A DNA stretch of 64,000 bases from a phage: the sequence record PZ347661.1; one strand, given 5' to 3'. The notes beneath the pieces are model-generated. The model had not been told where the DNA came from, searched no databases, and saw only the letters and a list, made by a program, of their open reading frames with translations. The stretch's first letter is position 1. Each line of letters starts with the position of its first letter. This document shows positions 1,881 through 37,978 of the stretch, piece by piece. The position numbers and the translations under genes were made by a program.

Positions 1881-2099
1881 ATGTTGGACTTCATTGCGTT
1901 TGTAATACTCTGTTATGTGCTATATCGCCTACGTGGTTACATCCTCAATGGAGCCAAGTGGGTAAGAACTAAGCTGGTACTTATCTGTAAGTTACCTGTT
2001 GTATTCGTTAAGTGTCTGTTTGCTTCCATCATAGCCAAAGAAGTTCGTAAGCAACTCTGGGCTAAGGAAGCAGAAGAGTTTGCAAAGAGGAACCAGTGA
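1881..2099 (+). CDS. hypothetical small hydrophobic protein (72 aa)
   Basis: ORF tightly packed after previous gene; weak RBS. Confidence 0.4.
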   Translation: MLDFIAFVILCYVLYRLRGYILNGAKWVRTKLVLICKLPVVFVKCLFASIIAKEVRKQLWAKEAEEFAKRNQ

Positions 2100-2278
2100 T
2101 ATTCACTAACATAGAAGATGCCATTGAAGAATGTATCTTTCGTAGGTATCACACTGGTATACAGAAACGACACTATGGTGTTGTACAACTCAATGGCTAT
2201 CAAATGGTTGTAAGAATTGTACGTAAGAGTAAACCTTTTAACTTTATGTGGAGTACTAAATCATGCGTAAGTCATTAA
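2096..2278 (+). CDS. hypothetical protein (60 aa, GTG start)
   Basis: ORF with non-ATG start overlapping previous stop. Confidence 0.3.
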   Translation: MIFTNIEDAIEECIFRRYHTGIQKRHYGVVQLNGYQMVVRIVRKSKPFNFMWSTKSCVSH

Positions 2279-2391
2279 TCATGGGAACCAAAGAAGACGT
2301 ACAAAAGATGAAAGAGCGTCTGGCTGCTAAGAAACAGACATCTGAACCAGTACGTAAGATTGTTACCTTCAATCATCCGTGTATCAAATAA
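2263..2391 (+). CDS. hypothetical small basic protein (42 aa, below the ORF-track cutoff)
   Basis: ATG with GGAG about 9 nt upstream; ends right before a terminator. Confidence 0.3.
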   Translation: MRKSLIMGTKEDVQKMKERLAAKKQTSEPVRKIVTFNHPCIK

Positions 2392-2396
2392 CAAGG

Positions 2397-2427
2397 AGTC
2401 CTCCATTAGGGGGACTTCTATTTTTTA
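2397..2427 (+). terminator. intrinsic terminator (8-bp stem, ATTA loop, T tract)
   Basis: AGTCCTCC-ATTA-GGGGGACT followed by TCTATTTTTT. Confidence 0.6.
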
Positions 2428-2502
2428 TTCCTGAATAGTTAGACCCGAAGGGTCAACCGTACGAAGTACGGTTAGATATGTATTTAAATAGGAGAAATAA
2501 CC

Positions 2503-2820
2503 TTGAATGAAATTGTTTGTATACTTCCTCAATCAGCTAAGATAGCTGACCGGAATATACGTATCCACTTACCATTCCCATTAAGCAATCCATTCACTCG
2601 TAATGAAAGAACCACAGTAGAAGACGTGGAGGTAGCTTATGAGGCTTACCTTCGTAATCGTCTTATTAGTGGTGACAAGTTAATTACAGCAGAGATGGAA
2701 AGGATTGCATCCTTTGTAACAGATAGTACAGGTAAGCCTGTTGGCTTAATTGGTACTGAATCTGATGTGAATGTTATTCGTAAAATATTAATGGAGGCAC
2801 TAAGTGAACAACCTCAGTGA
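2503..2820 (+). CDS. hypothetical protein (105 aa, TTG start)
   Basis: ORF with AGGAG 8 nt upstream of TTG. Confidence 0.45.
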   Translation: MNEIVCILPQSAKIADRNIRIHLPFPLSNPFTRNERTTVEDVEVAYEAYLRNRLISGDKLITAEMERIASFVTDSTGKPVGLIGTESDVNVIRKILMEALSEQPQ

Positions 2821-3037
2821 TGTAATTGTAGGTAATGAGATATTCGTTGACCGAAAAGGTTATGCCCGAATTAAACTAAAGGGTACTAACAGAACTATTG
2901 TTCGTAAGGTGTACTCTAAACCTTTTAGCAATTTCTCTATTGATGAAGTACGTATTAATAACAGGATGTACTTCATAGATAGTAAAGTATCTGTATGTCA
3001 TACAGATGGTAAAACCTCTCTTGAATATACTTACTAA
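2804..3037 (+). CDS. hypothetical protein (77 aa, GTG start)
   Basis: ORF overlapping previous gene end. Confidence 0.35.
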   Translation: MNNLSDVIVGNEIFVDRKGYARIKLKGTNRTIVRKVYSKPFSNFSIDEVRINNRMYFIDSKVSVCHTDGKTSLEYTY

Positions 3038-3049
3038 GGAATAAACAAA

Positions 3050-3271
3050 ATGTTGTTCAGCACTAATTATGGTATTTGCCCGATTTGCAATAAAGGAAGA
3101 GGAGTTGCTAATCATAAGAAGTGTAGTCGTATTCTACAGAAACAACGGAACCAGAAAGAATGGGATAAGATATTGGAAAACCAACACAAAGATGAGTTCA
3201 AGAAGACAGCTGTTAAGGCATCTACTCAGCTCATTCGTCGTACTAACTTCATAGAAGGTTATCAGAAATGA
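3050..3271 (+). CDS. hypothetical protein with N-terminal CPICNK motif (73 aa)
   Basis: ORF with AAGGA RBS; Cys pair may indicate a zinc ribbon. Confidence 0.5.
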   Translation: MLFSTNYGICPICNKGRGVANHKKCSRILQKQRNQKEWDKILENQHKDEFKKTAVKASTQLIRRTNFIEGYQK

Positions 3272-3624: not shown

Positions 3625-3882
3625 ATGATTATTACATATCCTACAGGCAAGAACGTAGATTATATGGGACATACTATCCAAGTACCACATTGGGTTAAGT
3701 ATATAGCTTTATATACTCGGCAATATAAAAGTGCTAATACCTCATTAATAGGATTCTCTAAGAAACCTAAGCTAACAGAAAACAATATCTGGGTATCCTC
3801 TGGGAGACAAGAAGAGATTGGTTTTTGTGATTTGAGTATTATCGATAATAACGTTTACCTAACGCTGGAGAAAGTAGCATGA
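3625..3882 (+). CDS. hypothetical protein (85 aa)
   Basis: ORF in tight operon. Confidence 0.45.
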   Translation: MIITYPTGKNVDYMGHTIQVPHWVKYIALYTRQYKSANTSLIGFSKKPKLTENNIWVSSGRQEEIGFCDLSIIDNNVYLTLEKVA

Positions 3883-24874: not shown

Positions 24875-27454
24875 ATGCGTTACATCACCTCTCAAGATAC
24901 GGGTAAGTATCCCATTGCTATCCTCGGTCATCAAATCCGAAGGGAGGAGATGATTAAAACCTACCTGCTGCCTAATGACTTAAGCATGGAAGATTTCATC
25001 TTCATTGAGCTTCATTCTGCCCCAGGCAAGAAGAAGACTCCTGCAAGGGAAATTAAAGAGTTCATACAGCAGGAACTTCAACAAGTACTGGATGATGCAG
25101 AAACTCAATACATAATCTGTACCGATTCTGATTACTTCAAAATACTGACTAAAGAAGCTAAAGCAGAGGCTAACCTCGGCTATGTTTGTGACTCAATATG
25201 GGGTAAGCAGAAGGTTATCTATGCACCTAGCTACAGGCAGGTCTTTTATGATCCTCCTGTAGTGAAATCCAAGATTGCTCAGGGTATGGATGCATTACTT
25301 AACCACATCCGTGGGCAGTATGCCGAACCAGGTCAGGGAATCATTGAGTTTGAAGCCTATCCAGATACACCAGAGAAGATTAAAGCCTGGTTAGACCAGT
25401 TGCTTGAGATGAATAAGCCACTGGCTATAGACATTGAAACATTCGGTTTAAAGCACTATAACGCCGAGGTAGGAACAATTACATTCTGTTGGAGTAAGAC
25501 ACAAGGCATAGCCTTTAATGTGGACTACGAGCCGATTCCTGGGGCTACTGAAGCACCTTACGGGCGTATCAACAGAAATGATATTGTTCGAAATCTTCTC
25601 CGTGAGTTCTTCATTAAGTACACCCAACGGCAGATGTATCACAACATTAGCTATGACGTGTATGTGCTTATCTATCAGTTATTCATGGATAACCTGATTG
25701 ATACAGAAGGCTTACTACATGGCATGGAAATCATGCTACGTAACTGGGATTGCACTAAGTTAATTACCTACCTGGCTACTAACAGTTGTGCCGGTAATCA
25801 CCTTAGTCTGAAAGATCAGGCTCAGGAGTATGCTGGTAACTATGCTCAGGATGATATTAAAGACATCTGTCTTATTCCTAATGAGCAGCTGTTACGCTAC
25901 AACCTCATTGACGGTTTGTGTACGTGGTACACCTATGAGAAGCACTGGGATACTCTCATTGCTGATAACCAATTGGATGTTTACAACAACATCTTTAAGC
26001 CAGCTTGTGAAGATATTATCCAGATGCAGTTAACCGGTATGCCCATGAATATGGATACCGTTAACCAAGTAGCTAAGGAGATGGAAACTGACAGGAACCA
26101 GGCTCTGAAAACTATTCGTGAGTCTAAGCTCATGAAGAACTTCACACTGATGCTTCGTCAGGAATGGGTAGACGATAAGAATGCTAAGCTGAAGAAGAAG
26201 CAAGTAACACTTGCTGACTGTGACATCGAGTTTAATCCAAACTCCGGTCCACAGCTACAGAAGCTGTTATTTGACTATATTGGCTTACCGGTTCTTGGTC
26301 TTACTAAGAGCAAGCAACCTGCTACTGATGGTGACACTATTAAAGCACTGCGTACCCATACGCAGAGTGAAGATGTTAAGGAACTGCTCAATGCACTTAT
26401 CGACTATAAGCTCGTGGATAAGATTATCACTAGCTTTATACCAGCTTTCAGGAATGCCCAACCGGGACCGGATGGCTGGCACTACCTATTCGGTAACCTC
26501 AATCTGGGAGGCACAGTCTCCGGTAGGCTATCGGCTTCAGAGCCAAATCTACAAACAATTCCATCCGGCTCTAAATATGCCAAGAAGATTAAGAAATGCT
26601 TCGAAGCTCCTCCAGGCTGGATATTTTGCGGCTTGGATTTCGCCTCGCTGGAAGACAGAATCTCTGCACTGACTACTAAAGACCCACAAAAGCTCAAGGT
26701 ATATACCGACGGCTATGATGGTCACAGTCTACGTGCATATGCTTACTTCGGCGAGCAGATGCCAGACATAGAAGACACAGTAGAATCCATTAACTCCATT
26801 CAGCATAAGTACAAATCATTACGTAGTGATTCGAAGGCTCCAACCTTCCTGCTTACCTATGGTGGTACTTATATGGGCTTAATGAAAAACTGTGGCTTCT
26901 CTGAAGAGAAGGCTAAAACTACAGAGAAACGTTATCACGATCTCTATGTAGTTAGTGACAGGTGGGTTCAGGCTAAGCTGGACGAAGCTGCCAAAACTGG
27001 CTATGTTACTGCCGCATTCGGTTTGAGAGTGCGTACTCCTTTACTGGCTCAGGTTTTACGTGGGACATGTAAGACTCCGTATGAAGCAGAAGCAGAAGGC
27101 AGAACTGCTGGTAATGCTTTAGGGCAAAGCTGGTGTCTACTGAATAACCGTGCTGGTTCAGAATTTATGCGTAAAGTCAGAGCCAGTGAGTTCAGATTAG
27201 ATATTCGTCCTAGTATTCATATTCATGATGCTCAGTACTTCATGATTCGTGACAACATGGATACCTTGCAGTTTACGAACAAGCACTTGGTTGAAGCTGT
27301 TAACTGGCAAGACCATCCTGATATTGCTCATCCAGAAGTTGGCTTGGGTGGGGAACTATCCTTGTTTTACCCAACGTGGGCTAACGAGATTGAAATTCCA
27401 AATCACGCTACCCCAGAAGAAGTTCATCAAATAATTCAAAAGGCATTCGCATGA
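24875..27454 (+). CDS. family A DNA polymerase with 3-prime-5-prime exonuclease domain (859 aa)
   Basis: Exo I LAIDIETFG; Pol A motif A LDFASLEDRI, motif B RSDSKAPTFLLTYGG, motif C HIHDAQYF. Confidence 0.85.
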   Translation: MRYITSQDTGKYPIAILGHQIRREEMIKTYLLPNDLSMEDFIFIELHSAPGKKKTPAREIKEFIQQELQQVLDDAETQYIICTDSDYFKILTKEAKAEANLGYVCDSIWGKQKVIYAPSYRQVFYDPPVVKSKIAQGMDALLNHIRGQYAEPGQGIIEFEAYPDTPEKIKAWLDQLLEMNKPLAIDIETFGLKHYNAEVGTITFCWSKTQGIAFNVDYEPIPGATEAPYGRINRNDIVRNLLREFFIKYTQRQMYHNISYDVYVLIYQLFMDNLIDTEGLLHGMEIMLRNWDCTKLITYLATNSCAGNHLSLKDQAQEYAGNYAQDDIKDICLIPNEQLLRYNLIDGLCTWYTYEKHWDTLIADNQLDVYNNIFKPACEDIIQMQLTGMPMNMDTVNQVAKEMETDRNQALKTIRESKLMKNFTLMLRQEWVDDKNAKLKKKQVTLADCDIEFNPNSGPQLQKLLFDYIGLPVLGLTKSKQPATDGDTIKALRTHTQSEDVKELLNALIDYKLVDKIITSFIPAFRNAQPGPDGWHYLFGNLNLGGTVSGRLSASEPNLQTIPSGSKYAKKIKKCFEAPPGWIFCGLDFASLEDRISALTTKDPQKLKVYTDGYDGHSLRAYAYFGEQMPDIEDTVESINSIQHKYKSLRSDSKAPTFLLTYGGTYMGLMKNCGFSEEKAKTTEKRYHDLYVVSDRWVQAKLDEAAKTGYVTAAFGLRVRTPLLAQVLRGTCKTPYEAEAEGRTAGNALGQSWCLLNNRAGSEFMRKVRASEFRLDIRPSIHIHDAQYFMIRDNMDTLQFTNKHLVEAVNWQDHPDIAHPEVGLGGELSLFYPTWANEIEIPNHATPEEVHQIIQKAFA

Positions 27455-27756
27455 CCAAAAGTACTAAAGAAACTGTAGTCAGAAAATATCATTGGATGGT
27501 GGCAGCACAAGTAGTCTTCCAGCTTCCTAAAGTGGATGATGGTTCCCTGCTTACCATGAACACAATGTTGCTCACTGATGAACCTTATGTGACCTATAAA
27601 GATTTGGCCCGTGCCAATCATTCCCTGAAGATTAGTCTGGACCAGCGTTTCGACACTTCGGTTGACCTGAAAGACATTGTTTATCTGTCTCTTAGTAACC
27701 TGGGTCTGATGTCTGAACCAGAGTTCCAGGCAAACATGATTCCAAAGGATAAATAA
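27451..27756 (+). CDS. hypothetical protein (101 aa)
   Basis: ORF, ATGA coupling. Confidence 0.5.
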   Translation: MTKSTKETVVRKYHWMVAAQVVFQLPKVDDGSLLTMNTMLLTDEPYVTYKDLARANHSLKISLDQRFDTSVDLKDIVYLSLSNLGLMSEPEFQANMIPKDK

Positions 27757-28040
27757 TGACTAAGCTCTCCGGTGGATTGAATAACTGGTATGTAGTACCA
27801 GTTAAGCACCCTCAACGGAAAGAGCAAGAGCCATACCAAGCAGAGTGTGAGGATATTATCCAAGCACTGGGCATGACCTTCGATGAAGGTTGTGCCTTTA
27901 AAGCTCTGTGGCGAAATGCTGCTGCCCGTATGGGTAATGGTAAACCTGGAAACTCTTCAGTGTACGACTCAGAGAAGATTGTGCACTATGCCAACCGTAT
28001 ATTAAAAAAGGCTTACAATGAAGATAACCAACAATCATGA
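27756..28040 (+). CDS. hypothetical protein (94 aa)
   Basis: ORF, overlap coupling. Confidence 0.5.
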   Translation: MTKLSGGLNNWYVVPVKHPQRKEQEPYQAECEDIIQALGMTFDEGCAFKALWRNAAARMGNGKPGNSSVYDSEKIVHYANRILKKAYNEDNQQS

Positions 28041-28998
28041 TGTCTCACTGGCTCTGGCTGTATGGCTACTACATGATGAGTATGATTACGTAGACAATCC
28101 TAAGTATCTGTCTGTTACTACATTGCTTAAGCCTATTAAGCAAATCGTCATGAAACATCGTGTAGATCTCAGTGACCAGTCAATTGATGTTATGGATTTT
28201 GTCTCCACATCAATGGGTACTGGCTTACATGACTCTATCGAGAAAGCCTGGAAGCTGGGTCATAAGACTGCATTGAAGAAGCTAGGTTATCCTCAGCGCG
28301 TAATTGATGCAGTAGTCATTAATCCAACCGAAGCAGACTTTGATGCTAACCCTGACCTTATCCCAATCTACATTGAACAACGTGGAACCAGGGTAGTTAA
28401 GGGTTGGACTATCGGTGGTAAGTTCGACATCGTAACAGAAGGTCTGTTGCAGGACTTTAAGTCCACTTCAACCTATTCCTGGGTTGCTGGTTCCCGTGAT
28501 GATGAACACAAGATGCAAGGTAGCTTATATCGTTGGATTCACAACGACATCATTACCGAGGATGTAATCCGTATTAACTACATCTTCACTGACTTCATGA
28601 AGCATATGGCCAATAGCAATCCGAACTATCCTGCTAATCGTATTATGCACAAGGATATTCCGTTGCTATCTGTCGATAAGACTGAACGTTGGGTAGAAGA
28701 GAAGATTCACCTCATTGAGAAGTACTGGAATGCACCTGAAGAGGAAATTCCTGAATGTACTGACGAGGAGTTGTGGCGAACAGAGCCACAGTTCAAATAC
28801 TTCTCTGATGCTTCTAAGGTAGATGTACCTGGAGCCAGAAGTACCAAAAACTTTGACGATATGGCATCTGCTCGTATCTTCATGGCTGAAAAAGGTGGCA
28901 AGGGTGCTATCAAGGTCGTGGAGGGGCAGGTTAAGCGTTGTCTATACTGCCCTGTCGCGTCCATTTGCAAACAAAGAGAGAGATATTTTCCATCATGA
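28018..28998 (+). CDS. putative PD-(D/E)XK-type exonuclease with C-terminal CxxCx5C motif (326 aa)
   Basis: GKFDIV ... LQDFKST nuclease-like motifs and C-terminal CLYCPVASIC cysteine cluster; N4 encodes a 5-prime-3-prime exonuclease in this region; inference. Confidence 0.5.
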   Translation: MKITNNHDVSLALAVWLLHDEYDYVDNPKYLSVTTLLKPIKQIVMKHRVDLSDQSIDVMDFVSTSMGTGLHDSIEKAWKLGHKTALKKLGYPQRVIDAVVINPTEADFDANPDLIPIYIEQRGTRVVKGWTIGGKFDIVTEGLLQDFKSTSTYSWVAGSRDDEHKMQGSLYRWIHNDIITEDVIRINYIFTDFMKHMANSNPNYPANRIMHKDIPLLSVDKTERWVEEKIHLIEKYWNAPEEEIPECTDEELWRTEPQFKYFSDASKVDVPGARSTKNFDDMASARIFMAEKGGKGAIKVVEGQVKRCLYCPVASICKQRERYFPS

Positions 28999-29510
28999 GT
29001 AAGCTGACCCAGCAACGTCTGAAAGAATTACTGCATTATGATGCTCAAACTGGCATCTTCACTCGTCGTATATCTCTCAGTAATCGCACACCAGTAGGTA
29101 GCATTGCTGGGTCAGTTAACAAGAGTGACGGCTATATCTATATAACTGTTGATGCCAAACGGGAAGCTGCTCACAGATTAGCTTGGTTCTATGTATATGG
29201 GGTATGGCCAGAAGGTCTTTTAGACCATAAGGACACTATTAAAACCCATAACTGGATAGACAATCTGAGAGAAGCCGATAAAAGTACTAACGGAGCTAAC
29301 CGTGGACTGAATAAAAACAACACTACAGGTTTTATGGGTGTTACAAAATTCAGGAGTGGATACCGAGCAGCAATTAAGGTAAACCACAAATCACATTTTC
29401 TAGGTGTATTCCCAGATGTAGTAGAGGCAGCTAAGGTATACGACAAAGCTGCATTAGAACATTTTGGGGAATTTGCCGTTACTAACATGAGCTTAGGATT
29501 ATTTAAATGA
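28995..29510 (+). CDS. HNH homing endonuclease with AP2 DNA-binding domain (171 aa)
   Basis: HNH motif LDHKDTIKTHNWIDNLREA...N and AP2 motif GYRAAIKVNHKSHFLGVF...EAAKVYDKAALEHFGEFA. Confidence 0.8.
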   Translation: MSKLTQQRLKELLHYDAQTGIFTRRISLSNRTPVGSIAGSVNKSDGYIYITVDAKREAAHRLAWFYVYGVWPEGLLDHKDTIKTHNWIDNLREADKSTNGANRGLNKNNTTGFMGVTKFRSGYRAAIKVNHKSHFLGVFPDVVEAAKVYDKAALEHFGEFAVTNMSLGLFK

Positions 29511-31660
29511 GTATTGACCTTACTGGCATAAGTCACCACCCTGCAATTGAAGAAATTGTAGACGTGCTGTGTAACAAGACACAAAACAACGACAGAGGAT
29601 TCTTCCGTGTCGAAGTAGCCTACTTCCTGGCTAAAATGGCATCCTGTATGGGTGCAACCATTGTCACTAAAGACCGTGGTGACTTACCAGTCAACATTTA
29701 CGCTATGGCATTAGCAACGTCTGGCTTCGGTAAAGGTCACTCGGTAAATATTATTGAAGACGGATTTATGACTGGCTTCCGTAAACGCTTTATGGAAGAC
29801 ACCATGCCCGTCATTGCAAATGACCGTTTATGGAAGATTGCTAACGAACGTGCTGCTCGTCAGGGTACAGACCAGAATGATGAGTTTGATAAAGTTGAGG
29901 CAGAGTATAAGCGTGCTGGAGCATATCCGTTTACGTTTGACTCAGGTACTCCACCAGCAGTTAAACAATTACGTCACAAGCTGTTAATGGCTGGGTGTGG
30001 TTCAATCAACCTTCAGATTGATGAGATTGGTTCAAACCTGTTAGCTAACACAGATGTATTAACCCTGTTCCTGGAGCTATATGACCAGGGTAAGGTTAAG
30101 CAGAAGCTAACCAAAAACACTGCTGAAAGTGTTCGTGGAGAAGAACTGGATGGTAAGACTCCAGCTAACCTGTTGTTGTTTGGTACACCAAGTAAGCTAC
30201 TGGATGGTGGTCAGACCGAAGATCAGTTCTATGACTTCCTCGATACAGGGTATGCACGTCGCTGTCTGTTTGCCATTGGGCATTTAGACAAACGAGCACA
30301 TGCAACAATGTCTCCGGAAGAAATCTACCGTAACCTGATTAAACAGGATAACGTGCAGTCTCTTGGCAAGTGGGCTAATCATTTCCATAGTCTGGCTGAC
30401 CCAAACCTGTTTGGTTTTAAAATGGTTGTGGAAGATGCTGTGGGGATTGCTCTGATTACTTACAAGATTGATTGTGAGAAACAGGCAGAGGCTATGGCTG
30501 ACCACGAAGAGATTCGTAAGGCTGAAATTTCACACCGTTACTTCAAAGCTCTTAAGCTGGCAGGAGCACTGGCATTTGTTGACCAGAGTTCATTCATTGA
30601 GATGTCCCATCTTAAACAAGCAATCCTGCTTGTAGAGGAATCTGGAGCAGCATTCCAGGGTATTCTCAATCGTGAGAAAGCCTATGTGAAGCTGGCTAAG
30701 TACATTGCCTCTGTAGGTAAAGAAGTAACTCATGCTGACTTGCTGGAGTCATTGCCTTTCTATAAGAGCGGTAATGCAGCTCGTAATGAGATGATGACTC
30801 TTGCTACAGCATGGGGTTACAAACAGCACATCATCATTAAGAAAACCTTCAATGAAGGTATTGAGTTCTTCCGTGGTGAGACTCTGAAAGAAACTGACAT
30901 CAATGAGATGATAGTGGCATATAGTGATAGCTTTGCTTATGACTACATTGGTGAACGTGTACCGTTCGACCAGTTGCATGTATTAACCCAAGCTCCCGGT
31001 ATGCACTGGGTAAACCATCATATGAAGAATGGGCATCGTTCTGAAGAGAACGTTATTCCAGGATTTAACATGATTGTTATTGACTGTGATGGTGGAGTAC
31101 CACTGCATATGTGCCATGAACTGATGAAGGAATATAAGTTCATGACCTATACCACTAAACGTCATTCTGATGAAGAGAACCGATTCCGACTGATTATTCC
31201 AATGAACTATGAGTTACACCTCGACACTGAGGAATACAAAGAGTTCATGAATAACGTTATGTCTTGGCTACCGTTCGAAACGGATGAGTCTGCTAATCAG
31301 CGAGCCAAGAAGTGGATGTCCTGCGAGATTGGTTCCTATCATTACAATCTTGAAGCAAATCTGTTGGATGTGCGTGACTTTATTCCTCGTACTAGTAAGA
31401 ACGAGCAGTTCCGGAACCAGATGAAGGAAGTACAGTCGTTGGATAATCTGGAGCGTTGGTTCGCTAGTCGTATTGCTACCGGTAATCGTAATAATCAAAT
31501 GATTAAGTACGCACTGGCATTGGTTGACAGTGGTTGGGATTTTGCCCAAGTACAGCAAGCCGTCCACTCATTCAATAAGAAACTGGTTAATCCATTGCCA
31601 GATGATGAATTGAATGCAACCGTAATGGTCACCGTGGCTAAACGCTTCGCTGGCAAGTAA
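29507..31660 (+). CDS. primase-like replication protein (N4 gp43-like, 717 aa)
   Basis: Large replication-module protein with P-loop-like SGFGKGHS; primase role inferred from synteny, not from a clear motif. Confidence 0.5.
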   Translation: MSIDLTGISHHPAIEEIVDVLCNKTQNNDRGFFRVEVAYFLAKMASCMGATIVTKDRGDLPVNIYAMALATSGFGKGHSVNIIEDGFMTGFRKRFMEDTMPVIANDRLWKIANERAARQGTDQNDEFDKVEAEYKRAGAYPFTFDSGTPPAVKQLRHKLLMAGCGSINLQIDEIGSNLLANTDVLTLFLELYDQGKVKQKLTKNTAESVRGEELDGKTPANLLLFGTPSKLLDGGQTEDQFYDFLDTGYARRCLFAIGHLDKRAHATMSPEEIYRNLIKQDNVQSLGKWANHFHSLADPNLFGFKMVVEDAVGIALITYKIDCEKQAEAMADHEEIRKAEISHRYFKALKLAGALAFVDQSSFIEMSHLKQAILLVEESGAAFQGILNREKAYVKLAKYIASVGKEVTHADLLESLPFYKSGNAARNEMMTLATAWGYKQHIIIKKTFNEGIEFFRGETLKETDINEMIVAYSDSFAYDYIGERVPFDQLHVLTQAPGMHWVNHHMKNGHRSEENVIPGFNMIVIDCDGGVPLHMCHELMKEYKFMTYTTKRHSDEENRFRLIIPMNYELHLDTEEYKEFMNNVMSWLPFETDESANQRAKKWMSCEIGSYHYNLEANLLDVRDFIPRTSKNEQFRNQMKEVQSLDNLERWFASRIATGNRNNQMIKYALALVDSGWDFAQVQQAVHSFNKKLVNPLPDDELNATVMVTVAKRFAGK

Positions 31661-31716
31661 GCAAACAGGAGTCTTTCTTTGGTTTGAAGGACTCCTAAAT
31701 TAAATGAGGAAAAATA

Positions 31717-32469
31717 ATGTCCGAAGTAATTCCCAATGATATGAACACTCAGCTAATCCTGATTGCAGGATTCTCAGCGAGCGGTAAATCAGCATCACTG
31801 CGTAACATCCGGAACCAGGAACGCTGGCTCTATCTGAACACTGAAGCAGGTAAACGTCTGCCTTTCCGTAACAAATTCAATACCTACAACATCGAAGACC
31901 CATATCAGATTTGGGAAGCATTTGATGTTGCATCTCCTGGTGGAGAAATGGCAGATGATGTTGATGGTATCATCATTGACTCAGCAACCTTTATGATGGA
32001 TATGCTGGAATCCCAGTATGTATTGCCCTCTGCAAACACACAAAAGGCATGGGGTGATTTTGCACAGTTCTTTAAGATACTGCTGCAACAGAAAGTTGTT
32101 AAGTTTGGTAAGCCAGTAATCATTACTGCTCATGCTAAAGACGAACTGGATGAAGCTGCTGGTGTGATGAAAACATTCATCCCAGTGAAAGGTTCTCTTA
32201 AGAATAACGGGCTTGAAGCCTACTTCTCTACAGTGGTTTACGCAGAACGTGTAGACATTAAAGAACTGGAGAAGTATGGGAACAAGATGCTTGAAATTAC
32301 GGAAGAAGAACGTGACTTAGGGTATAAGCACGTATTCCAGACCCGTCCAACCAAGAAGTCAGTAGGTAAACGACTTCGTTCCCCAATGGGTATGTTTGAT
32401 AAGTCCGAGACTTATATCGACAATGATGCCCAGAAACTCTTAGACCACCTGGCTGAATACTACGCTTAA
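31717..32469 (+). CDS. P-loop ATPase (250 aa)
   Basis: Walker A GFSASGKSAS and Walker B-like IIIDSAT. Confidence 0.55.
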   Translation: MSEVIPNDMNTQLILIAGFSASGKSASLRNIRNQERWLYLNTEAGKRLPFRNKFNTYNIEDPYQIWEAFDVASPGGEMADDVDGIIIDSATFMMDMLESQYVLPSANTQKAWGDFAQFFKILLQQKVVKFGKPVIITAHAKDELDEAAGVMKTFIPVKGSLKNNGLEAYFSTVVYAERVDIKELEKYGNKMLEITEEERDLGYKHVFQTRPTKKSVGKRLRSPMGMFDKSETYIDNDAQKLLDHLAEYYA

Positions 32470-34722: not shown

Positions 34723-35144
34723 TATCGTGAAGGGTTCTGTTAGAATCCTTTGAGATAGGAACTCCTATCATAACCTTTCTTAACTTAATCTTTGCCGTAT
34801 GGCACTGACGCTAGGGGTGGCCCCCCATCCGTCAGGTAGACTATTTTAAGAATGGGTTATCACAGCAAATGTAAAGCAACATTCGGGTTAATCAATGGCC
34901 TCTCCCTATAGGGGCCATTTCTGAATCTTAGGCTATATCCCAAAGGTTAATATCTTTGGGATAAGGCTTCAGATCCCTTATCAACTAACCGCTCAATGTT
35001 GAGCATTTTAATCACATAAGCCCCTATATGGGCTGGGTTAAATGTCGGATAGCATAGCTACCTACAGCATCGAATTGTTAGGTCTTACATGCAAACTAAA
35101 TCATAGGGTAAAGAGGGACTCGTCCTCCCTCCCCTATTATAATG

Positions 35145-35214
35145 GTCGGGGTAGCGCGTAGGCATGTGCAGAAGGTCGCTACTTCTCTCGCTGGTTCGAA
35201 TCCAGCCCCCGACC
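35145..35214 (+). tRNA. tRNA-like element A (about 70 nt, isotype undetermined)
   Basis: 7-bp acceptor pairing GTCGGGG/CCCCGAC, U8-A9, T-arm GCTGG-TTCGAAT-CCAGC, possible anticodon stem AGAAG/CTTCT; hand fold leaves a short variable loop; no encoded CCA. Confidence 0.4.
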
Positions 35215-35765
35215 TACTGACATCCTATCAATGAGTACATTAGGCTAACGTGCGGAGGTTTACACTGTAGCCGGTGTAGGTGGAGAAGACGGCAGGATAG
35301 CTACCTGTGCTTAGTGTACTCTTTGATAGTTTTCGTAAGCGATTATGCGGTTTTTTAGAAACGAACCAATAACATAAATGCAAACGATGATGTTGTTCTG
35401 ATGGCGGCGTAATAGCCTATAAGTCAGCAAGGTCTTCCGATTCCTTGTAAACAAATTCGGCGCAGTGGCCCGCTGTGATTAATAATGGGCACACAACAGG
35501 TAAGAGCATTTAGGCTACTGAGAAATCATCCGAGGCAATCAGACCTATCTTCTGTTAAGTGCTCTTTCCGTTGTGGTGAATGTGCAGGCTGATGCGCAGT
35601 GGGACGTGGCTGACTCACGAGGATGGCTCAAGCGAATAAGCAAGCTCGACGCCGCCGAATAAGCGCCTTATGCCGGAGATCAGTACCGGCCACCACAACA
35701 AGTCCAGACGATATCTGAGTGACTATAAAAACAGATGGAGCCAGGTGGAATCCCTGGCAACTAAT

Positions 35766-36401: not shown

Positions 36402-36475
36402 GCCCACTTAGCTTAGACAGGGAAAGCAACCGACTAATAATCGGAAGGTCACTGGTTCAAATCCAGTAGTGGGTA
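36402..36475 (+). tRNA. tRNA candidate D (74 nt cloverleaf, anticodon uncertain)
   Basis: Acceptor GCCCACT/AGTGGGT (G-U first pair), D stem GCTT/AAGC, anticodon stem CCGA/TCGG with loop CTAATAA, T-arm ACTGG-TTCAAAT-CCAGT; the hand fold gives an unusual AAU anticodon. Confidence 0.45.
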
Positions 36476-36791
36476 CTTATTTGCTGCAATATTCCCATAG
36501 GGAATGGTGCCGTATACGCCACCTAGTTTCTGGTGAAACTCCAGATGCAGCAATCCATTCAGCAGTAACATAGTCCTGATTGCATTGCACTCTAAAGACA
36601 ACACTGGTAAGACAGTCCAGTGACTGCTAATGTACTGTTATTCCCCTCGACGGGAATTTCGCTAGTGAAGGTAACACTTAAAAATCCAAACCTACGTCTT
36701 ACTACTATCGGGCTATCAACCCACAGTCGCTTAACACACTAGTGGTAGTAGTTTGACGGCCTAGCCTCGTTAGCTGCGTTAAAGCTACTAA

Positions 36792-37486: not shown

Positions 37487-37978
37487 ATGTCAGAAGAAAT
37501 TAAAGTCCATTTCACCAATTATATCGGAACCAAGTGTGTAAATGGTTTCCCGATGAACAAAGAAACATACTGCAAACTTCGTGGCTGGAATGTACCTGCT
37601 AAAGAAGACCCACTAGAAGAAGGTTATTTAGTCGAGTACCCAGACTCTAAGTCCAACCATCCTCAGTTCCGTGGCTATATTAGCTGGTCACCTAAAGCTG
37701 CATTCGAAGCTGCATACCATGACGTAGAAAAAGGTTGTACCTTTGGTCATACAGTAGAGCTTCTCAAATCAGGCTTCAGAATGACCCGTAAAGGTTGGAA
37801 CGGAAAAGGAATGTATATCACCTTAGTATCTGGTGAAAATTGGGCCATGGATAAACATGAAAATACCGTTTGTGAGAAACGGGATTGGCTGGGTATTAAA
37901 ACCGTTGATAACCAGTTTATGCCATGGGTTCCATCTCAATCAGATGTATTAGCAGAAGATTGGGTGTTAGCTCAGTAA
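37487..37978 (+). CDS. hypothetical protein (163 aa)
   Basis: ORF with GAGG RBS; last + strand gene before the strand switch. Confidence 0.55.
   Translation: MSEEIKVHFTNYIGTKCVNGFPMNKETYCKLRGWNVPAKEDPLEEGYLVEYPDSKSNHPQFRGYISWSPKAAFEAAYHDVEKGCTFGHTVELLKSGFRMTRKGWNGKGMYITLVSGENWAMDKHENTVCEKRDWLGIKTVDNQFMPWVPSQSDVLAEDWVLAQ

Follow-up and report, generated by a model that had tools for sequence, protein, structure and literature searches.

What a nuclease gene is doing between two replication genes of a phage, and how it came to be there, is the question raised by the exonuclease/primase junction in sequence record PZ347661.1, of which a stretch of 64,000 nucleotides (nt; hereafter the window) was analysed. 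The source, a coliphage, belongs to Gamaleyavirus (Schitoviridae, Enquatrovirinae; G7C/N4-like) and shares ~94% identity over 24 kb with its nearest GenBank relatives. At positions 28995–29510 on the plus strand, an open reading frame (ORF) encodes a protein of 171 amino acids (aa; MSKLTQQRLKELL...SLGLFK*). We consider it highly probable that this is a free-standing homing endonuclease gene of the HNH_3–AP2 type, resident in the replication-gene operon of Gamaleyavirus. As a new allele of an element already known and annotated, it makes an ordinary though tidy example of its kind.

Comparison with phages that lack the gene reveals a precise insertion. The exonuclease stop directly overlaps the primase start in pSb-1 and ECBP1 (...CCATC ATGAGTA TTGACC...; the empty site reads ...CCATCATGAGTATTGACC...), and relative to this arrangement the window holds exactly 513 extra bases with ATGAGTA at both ends. 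In the alignment with empty sites, this 7-bp direct repeat occupies plus-strand positions 28995–29001 on the left and 29507–29513 on the right; the left copy is imperfect in ZQ2 (ATGATTA). Each copy includes an ATGA overlap, as the original prediction had read directly from the sequence. On the left (28995–28998), the exonuclease TGA (28996–28998) overlaps the endonuclease ATG (28995–28997), while on the right (29507–29510) the endonuclease TGA (29508–29510) overlaps the primase ATG (29507–29509). The endonuclease thus starts where the primase starts in phages with an empty site.

For a census of the junction, the window sequence with the endonuclease gene deleted served as query, and 43 distinct Gamaleyavirus/Moovirus phages were compared. 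The junction is empty in 34 of them, whereas six (ZQ2, PBM-2, PBM-3, UE-M6, PhAPEC5 and Moo19) carry a gene of the same type as the window, here termed type A. The remaining three (EC1-UPM, U1G and PGN829.1) harbor a 474-bp insertion of a second type, B, that encodes a 162-aa HNH_3 protein with a sub-threshold AP2 match and 31% identity to type A. N4 itself lacks the gene and has no replacement for it. Exonuclease and primase genes also overlap or abut in the great majority of 80 N4-like loci from IMG/VR, with ~500-bp insertions scattered among them (L022, L057, L065, L073, L095 and L094) that contain relatives with 34–67% identity. The synteny comparison proposed in the original prediction therefore yields a presence/absence polymorphism, and the suggestion that the gene is an accessory insertion is borne out. 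Within the window, a tblastn search for paralogues returned only the gene itself; homologues of the wider HNH–AP2 family are found in 2186 phage records. The type B genes lie at 3768–4256 of L004 (EC1-UPM gp47), 3202–3690 of L090 (PGN829.1) and ~4975–5463 of L013, and three IMG/VR contigs, too, have a gene of this type at the junction. An unannotated 478-bp gap in PGN829.1 was considered as the site of a decayed type B gene; this idea was dropped, as the gap holds an intact 162-aa ORF that is unannotated in the RefSeq record.

The N-terminal half of the protein contains an HNH_3 (His-Me finger) nuclease core at residues 58–100 (29166–29294, plus strand), which matches Pfam PF13392 with E=6.7e-10 and 38.9 bits against a cut-off of 24.8. 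The same profile is matched by all 45 aligned homologues, among which D77, H78, N86 and N102 are invariant; the catalytic D77–H78 pair is encoded at 29223–29228. Hence, the sequence holds the pattern of a catalytic Asp-His general base and an Asn/Asn (H-N-N) metal site, placed on a predicted beta-beta-alpha fold. An AlphaFold2 model built on the 45-homologue alignment (mean predicted local distance difference test, pLDDT, 93.3) shows strands at 75–78 and 91–94 followed by a helix at 96–101 in this region. A family profile made from the same alignment finds the phage endonuclease I-HmuI (1u3e) over residues 42–120 with E=2.3e-6, phmmer against the PDB sequences returned I-HmuI as well, and the N-terminal part of the model superposes on 1u3e in Foldseek over 96 columns with a root-mean-square deviation (rmsd) of 3.8 Å. 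In addition, PHROG 99 (‘HNH endonuclease’) is matched with E=9e-64, and the PADLOC ‘homing endonuclease’ model weakly. The clear HNH motif that had been claimed is thus upheld, with its catalytic residues intact.

In the C-terminal third, an AP2-type DNA-binding domain is assigned to residues ~109–165 (29319–29489, plus strand) on the basis of the family profile, the homologues and the model, while Pfam AP2 (PF00847) matched neither the whole protein nor its C-terminal 73 aa, even at E≤10. Of the two hidden Markov model searches suggested in the original prediction, the one for HNH_3 was therefore positive and the one for AP2 negative. The AP2 domain itself finds support elsewhere. Pfam AP2 is passed individually by 27 of the 45 aligned homologues (best E=1.2e-12), and phmmer against the PDB sequences returned the AP2 domain of plant WRI1 (E=4.6e-6) as well as TEM1 and ERF096. 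With the family profile, AP2 domains are found at positions ~109–165 with E=3.5e-12 for WRI1, 2e-7 for TEM1, 2.8e-5 for ERF096 and 3e-4 for AtERF1. The modelled C-terminal fold consists of three strands (116–119, 122–129 and 132–139) followed by a helix (142–160), and Foldseek superposes it on AtERF1 (1gcc) over 57 columns with an rmsd of 1.2 Å, a TM (template modelling) score of 0.75 and 32% identity, and on the TEM1 AP2 domain (7et5) with an rmsd of 1.8 Å. Since Pfam HNH_3, family profile, homologues and model superpositions agree, the predicted HNH-then-AP2 arrangement is real. A junction-specific clade (P0002–P0017, L022, L057, L065 and L073) moreover shares a C-terminal tail, TNxSLGL[IL] (window 29475–29507), whose last residues are modelled with low confidence (pLDDT ~64). 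The AGGA that precedes the primase start comes from the Gly codon of this tail, which persists even in L073, a locus without overlap between the genes.

How mobile is this gene? Between the window allele and the other type A alleles, the ratio of nonsynonymous to synonymous divergence (dN/dS) is ~0.10, by which measure the endonuclease protein is under purifying selection. The synonymous divergence (dS) of the gene amounts to 1.28–1.29 against ZQ2, PhAPEC5 and PBM3, compared to 0.11–0.28 for the exonuclease and 0.41–0.45 for the primase; against Moo19, a phage from another genus, the gene (0.92) is less diverged than the exonuclease (2.16). Apart from the window, its allele was only found in three metagenome-assembly contigs, i.e. 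L092 and L093 (two aa differences) and L098 (identical protein). The window, L092/L093 and L098 represent three backbones that differ pairwise at 50–54 of 1200 positions between −1500 and −300 (~4.4%), yet their endonuclease genes differ at only 1–3 of 516 bases. Genes this similar in backbones this far apart have the look of recent horizontal spread. As these copies and the incongruent dS values show, the sequence history of the gene is decoupled from that of its flanks, in line with the horizontal acquisition that had been postulated. A ~1.1-kb island of near-identity with L092/L093 was considered as a possible co-conversion tract and rejected, as the ±300-bp flanks of the non-carriers nithesis, PD205, ECBP1 and pSb-1 show equally low diversity; this leaves the gene and a 15-bp tract next to it (see below) as the informative parts.

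A candidate for the site that the endonuclease recognizes or cleaves lies in the 5’ end of the primase gene. Codons 5–9 (29519–29533, plus strand) read CTT ACT GGC ATA AGT (LTGIS) in the window, which would be the immune form, and CTG ACC GGA GTC ACT (LTGVT) or CTT ACC GGA GTA GTG in empty sites. Six substitutions (29521, 29524, 29527, 29528, 29530 and 29532) occur in all type A carriers and in no empty site; no other difference in the flanks is strictly tied to the gene. Beyond ~+25 bp, the window is back on the haplotype of pSb-1, nithesis and ECBP1, while the primases of ZQ2, PhAPEC5 and PBM3 follow the St11Ph5-type haplotype and that of Moo19 a third one. Because the type A tract is present on at least three different primase haplotypes, it travels with the gene and not with the backbone. 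Within the 3127 bp of exonuclease and primase, it is also the densest 15-bp mismatch cluster against PD205 and nithesis. Among relatives with ≥80% primase identity, GGA GTN at codons 7–8 is found in 16 of 16 non-redundant empty loci and in none of ten occupied ones; across all non-redundant loci, it occurs in 30 of 60 empty and 0 of 16 occupied sites.

Type B carriers show a change of their own in the same place. All four wobble positions of codons 6–9 are altered (ACA GGG GTA ACC) with the amino acids unchanged, and these genomes have further clustered changes of their own within the final ~28 bp of the exonuclease gene. The N-terminus of the primase, M(S)IDLTGV[TS]HHPAIEE, is conserved in most of ~90 loci, and conservation across N4-like phages extends in part to the DNA of the first ~30 bp of its gene. 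Homing endonucleases usually choose conserved targets. Taken together, these comparisons suggest that codons 5–9 of the primase are probably the target or immunity tract. One N4-like IMG/VR contig, L084, has an empty junction with GGC ATC at primase codons 7–8, as in type A carriers; the allele may be a resistant one, or the site may once have been occupied.

A mechanism can be patterned on the T4 seg and mob genes, for which intronless homing and marker exclusion are established (PMC2988022, PMC2790892). In a mixed infection, the protein would recognize the conserved primase 5’ end of the gene-free phage, around ...ATGAGTATTGACCTGACCGGAGTCACT..., by means of its AP2 domain and N-terminal sheet, and nick or cut the DNA there. 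The break may then be resected and repaired from the carrier genome, so that the gene and a short flank would be copied into the recipient and exclude the local markers of the latter. Protection of the carrier would come from its six changes in primase codons 5–9 (GGA GTC to GGC ATA, and others). Marker exclusion, as brought forward in the original prediction, and nuclease activity itself are in this case inferred.

As for expression, the endonuclease gene has no promoter or terminator of its own. It takes over the start that is coupled to the exonuclease stop and would give the essential primase a new start region, AGGA-N8-ATG. A Shine-Dalgarno-like AGGA that may serve the primase lies inside the last endonuclease codons (L-G-L, TTA GGA TTA; 29495–29498, plus strand), 8 nt upstream of the displaced primase ATG, and is conserved in ZQ2, PhAPEC5, PBM3, Moo19 and L022. 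There was no excess of promoter-like (sigma-70-type) sites, with 5 found and 9.7 expected, or of terminator-like sites (3 found, 2.7 expected). Neither gene junction showed a significant RNA structure (z-scores +0.4 and +1.4). Rfam families, including group I and II introns, had no match in 27000–32000 at E≤1; the gene lies between two others and has a start and a stop of its own, and is thus part of neither an intron nor an intein. The first codons (MSKLTQ) were considered as a decayed copy of the primase 5’ end, an idea that was abandoned, as ‘LT..RL.ELL.YD’ is the N-terminal consensus of the family in unrelated contexts.

Upstream of the endonuclease gene, the exonuclease gene (28018–28998, plus strand, 326 aa) is a homologue of N4 gp42 that matches PHROG 2139 (‘exonuclease’) with E=9e-152 and is annotated as exonuclease in related records; its match to Pfam PDDEXK_1 is weak (E=0.0031) and falls below the cut-off. 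Downstream follows the DNA primase gene (29507–31660, plus strand, 717 aa), a homologue of N4 gp43 with Pfam PriCT_1 and a match to PHROG 2135 (‘DNA primase’) for which E is reported as 0. With an exonuclease and a primase of the replication module as neighbours, and with most relatives lacking the gene, the locus does not resemble that of a terminase-associated (HK97 gp74-like) nuclease.

Several observations weigh against the homing endonuclease reading or temper it. The clustering of mismatches in the 15-bp tract lends modest support, as 1.3% of shuffles reach it, and the Fisher test for 30 of 60 versus 0 of 16 loci (p=1e-4) is uncorrected for shared ancestry. Instead of determining immunity, the tract could be left over from the donor by hitch-hiking, and the true cleavage site may lie elsewhere, given that free-standing T4 endonucleases often cut hundreds of bp away from their own gene (PMC2988022). 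Moreover, ±300 bp around the junction are nearly invariant in carriers and non-carriers alike, and therefore no co-conversion tract can be demonstrated beyond the 15-bp tract. Composition is no help either: GC is 40.7% compared to 43%, GC at third codon positions lies at the 23rd and the codon score at the 12th percentile of core segments, and none of these deviations is significant. The composition is hence core-like and gives no support for a foreign origin, leaving this line of evidence neutral. The original prediction had named ubiquity among related phages together with core-like composition as the pattern that would speak against it; the latter is what is found, while the gene is absent from most relatives, so the combined pattern does not occur. 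Finally, cleavage, its site, the choice between a nick and a double-strand break, and biased inheritance are all inferred.

Some of these points would suit a different history, in which a former homing endonuclease is no longer a site-specific cutter and spreads as a passenger by homologous recombination through the conserved flanks. Near-identical sequence on both sides of the junction in carriers and non-carriers would make such recombination easy, and a composition like that of core genes would fit as well. Yet, a low dN/dS and the invariance of D77, H78, N86 and N102 are arguments that the nuclease function has been maintained. Passive hitch-hiking would not preserve the strict linkage between the gene and its six clustered substitutions on several backbones where recombination has otherwise reached the very edge of the tract. 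Type B, with four wobble changes in codons 6–9 at the same site, also speaks against a mere passenger, which we therefore regard as unlikely. A gene that was ancestral at the junction and repeatedly lost by precise deletion between the 7-bp ATGAGTA repeats, so that the empty sites would be derived, is very improbable. The direct repeat flanking the window gene could indeed mediate precise excision, but it is imperfect in ZQ2, and empty overlapping junctions are the rule across deeply diverged N4-like phages. Precise deletion would also leave the carrier-type tract behind, which no empty Gamaleyavirus or N4 site retains, and the dS of the gene exceeds that of the flanks ~4–10-fold between Gamaleyavirus carriers.

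Conceivably, the gene has instead been domesticated for the needs of the phage: its product might, for example, repress or regulate replication genes in the manner of an AP2 protein, or attack competitors or host DNA as a nuclease. Strong purifying selection and the tight translational coupling within the replication operon are compatible with such a role, and co-option of DNA-binding domains derived from homing endonuclease genes is documented (PMC10448857). However, the gene is absent in 34 of the 43 close relatives and in N4, and hence dispensable, while an alternative HNH–AP2 gene with just 31% identity at the same junction is the pattern of competing selfish elements. As any benefit through marker exclusion would fit the homing endonuclease explanation and does not constitute a separate one, we give domestication a small chance only. 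A resident homing endonuclease remains our preferred explanation of the locus.

This places the gene among several known systems. According to Magnani et al. 2004, as cited in PMC10448857 and PMC1524935, HNH–AP2 homing endonucleases have been described in phages, cyanobacteria and protists, and plant AP2/ERF transcription factors are, by the account of the same work in PMC10448857, thought to derive from such endonucleases. It is this link to the plant factors that makes the AP2 reading of interest. Like other members of the HNH–AP2 family (e.g. RB49 ORF040c or ICP1 ‘IPA-HNH’), the window gene encodes an N-terminal HNH and a C-terminal AP2 domain in ~170 aa, is free-standing and occurs sporadically. 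The HNH domains of the ICP1 IPA-HNH proteins are too divergent for the HNH_3 profile (PMC10448857), whereas that of the window is canonical and detected by Pfam; conversely, its AP2 domain is divergent enough to escape Pfam AP2, unlike that of many family members. Among the systems closest to it are the GenBank orthologues at the same junction, annotated as ‘putative HNH homing endonuclease’ in PhAPEC5, ZQ2, PBM-2/3 and UE-M6 and as gp58 in Shigella virus Moo19. They share the position, the length of 171 aa, the ATGA overlaps and the linked primase tract, but are only 79.5–83.5% (aa) and 77–81% (nt) identical to the window gene with dS of 0.9–1.3, by which the window allele is a distinct lineage. 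A literature search found no paper on this junction-specific clade or its target, and to our knowledge none of its members has been characterized.

The closest solved nuclease is I-HmuI from SPO1 (PDB 1u3e), in which the last metal ligand is an Asn rather than a His, as is N102 of the window protein. I-HmuI is reportedly intron-encoded, nicks one strand and has a helix-turn-helix C-terminal domain. The window gene, in contrast, is intergenic without an intron and encodes an AP2 domain instead. Like the genes of the T4 Seg and Mob enzymes, it occupies an intergenic place amid conserved genes of replication or nucleotide metabolism, would spread through the repair of breaks and has a presumed target in a conserved neighbour, but Seg proteins are GIY-YIG enzymes, and Mob proteins combine HNH with other C-terminal domains. 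In addition, the candidate site of the window lies 12–26 bp from the insertion point, which is nearer to the pattern of intron-encoded endonucleases than to that of T4 Seg/Mob. For G7C-like phages, a preprint reported that variable loci often involve homing-endonuclease-like genes (10.1101/542787).

The two types at one junction invite a further, more tentative proposal. The junction could be a long-lived homing site of N4-like phages that is contested by at least two divergent HNH–AP2 lineages, A and B, both of which would recognize the same ~15-bp stretch at the primase 5’ end (CTGACCGGAGTCACT), with each carrier holding its own immunity allele. We consider this possible, though somewhat less than an even bet. 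Candidates for the immunity alleles are GGC ATA AGT for type A (V to I, T to S) and the silent wobble changes for type B. Relatives of type A with 34–67% identity occupy the junction where the primases are only 56–77% identical, which suggests that the nuclease clade has tracked one target across Schitoviridae. A precedent may be I-HmuI and I-HmuII of SPO1 and SP82, which compete at one site (Goodrich-Blair and Shub 1996, as cited in PMC10448857). There, too, related phages carry two endonuclease genes at one site, with the difference that types A and B are free-standing and the I-HmuI/I-HmuII genes are borne by introns.

Other variable elements were noticed around this locus. ECBP1 (L003 2303–2800), Bp4, G7C, EC1-UPM and PD38 carry a paralogous HNH–AP2 gene (48% aa identity) upstream of the exonuclease gene, which is missing from the corresponding place in the window (~28018). 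In ECBP1, ~65 bp of the exonuclease 5’ end are present in duplicate, one copy on either side of this insertion (L003 2231–2295 and 2797–2861), and the densest cluster of mismatches between the window and ECBP1 (window 28040–28054) adjoins the insertion. A metagenomic N4-like contig, L094 (features at 198–716, 727–948, 1204–1830 and 1892–3247), encodes an endonuclease homologue with 63% identity that starts with a copy of primase codons 1–10 (MIDLTGVSHH); the real primase begins with another copy, which is altered. A NUMOD4/HNH_3 endonuclease gene interrupts this primase after ~73 codons, so that two mobile elements lie within 1.7 kb. Yet another variable endonuclease site of this phage group concerns the DNA polymerase, which is intact in the window (24875–27454, 859 aa) and split in PD205, PGN829.1, Bp4 and contig L092 (L086, L090, L091 and L092), with an HNH endonuclease ORF in or beside the gap.

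Annotation varies in the same region. The N4 gp41 homologue upstream of the exonuclease gene (window 27756–28040) comprises 94 aa in the window, ZQ2, PD205, L092 and L093, 87 aa in the annotated form of pSb-1 and 155–158 aa in nithesis, St11Ph5, PBM-3, ECBP1 and others; it is inconsistently annotated, sometimes as 3’-phosphatase/5’-polynucleotide kinase. The exonuclease gene of pSb-1 (L002) is frameshifted relative to the window by a 1-bp indel (annotated with 873 bp versus 981), and the primase gene of Bp4 (L091) is split by an indel into two annotated coding sequences; both indels may be sequencing errors or reflect pseudogenes. Elsewhere in the window, a 163-aa ORF at 37487–37978 contains a Tad2-like (Thoeris anti-defence 2) domain (Pfam PF11195, E=1.7e-22), and ARAGORN reports a tRNA-Ala (anticodon CGC) at 35144–35215 and a tRNA-Ile (anticodon AAT) at 36402–36476.

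Nothing in these results overturns current understanding. What they add are the census of the junction, the recent spread among at least three backbones, the prediction of a 15-bp target and immunity tract, and a second lineage that probably competes for the junction. For Gamaleyavirus, a group used in phage-therapy collections, the gene marks a local hotspot of recombination, and its near-identical copies on diverged backbones show that exchange is ongoing in nature. As an accessory selfish element outside the replication machinery, it is unsuitable as a core or taxonomic marker. With a candidate target of 15 bp and the individual substitutions that should render a site immune now spelled out, this uncharacterized HNH–AP2 enzyme is easy to test. 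If the junction is indeed contested by two lineages, its three natural states (empty, A and B) would offer a simple system for studying both the competition between endonucleases and the reading of DNA by AP2 domains.

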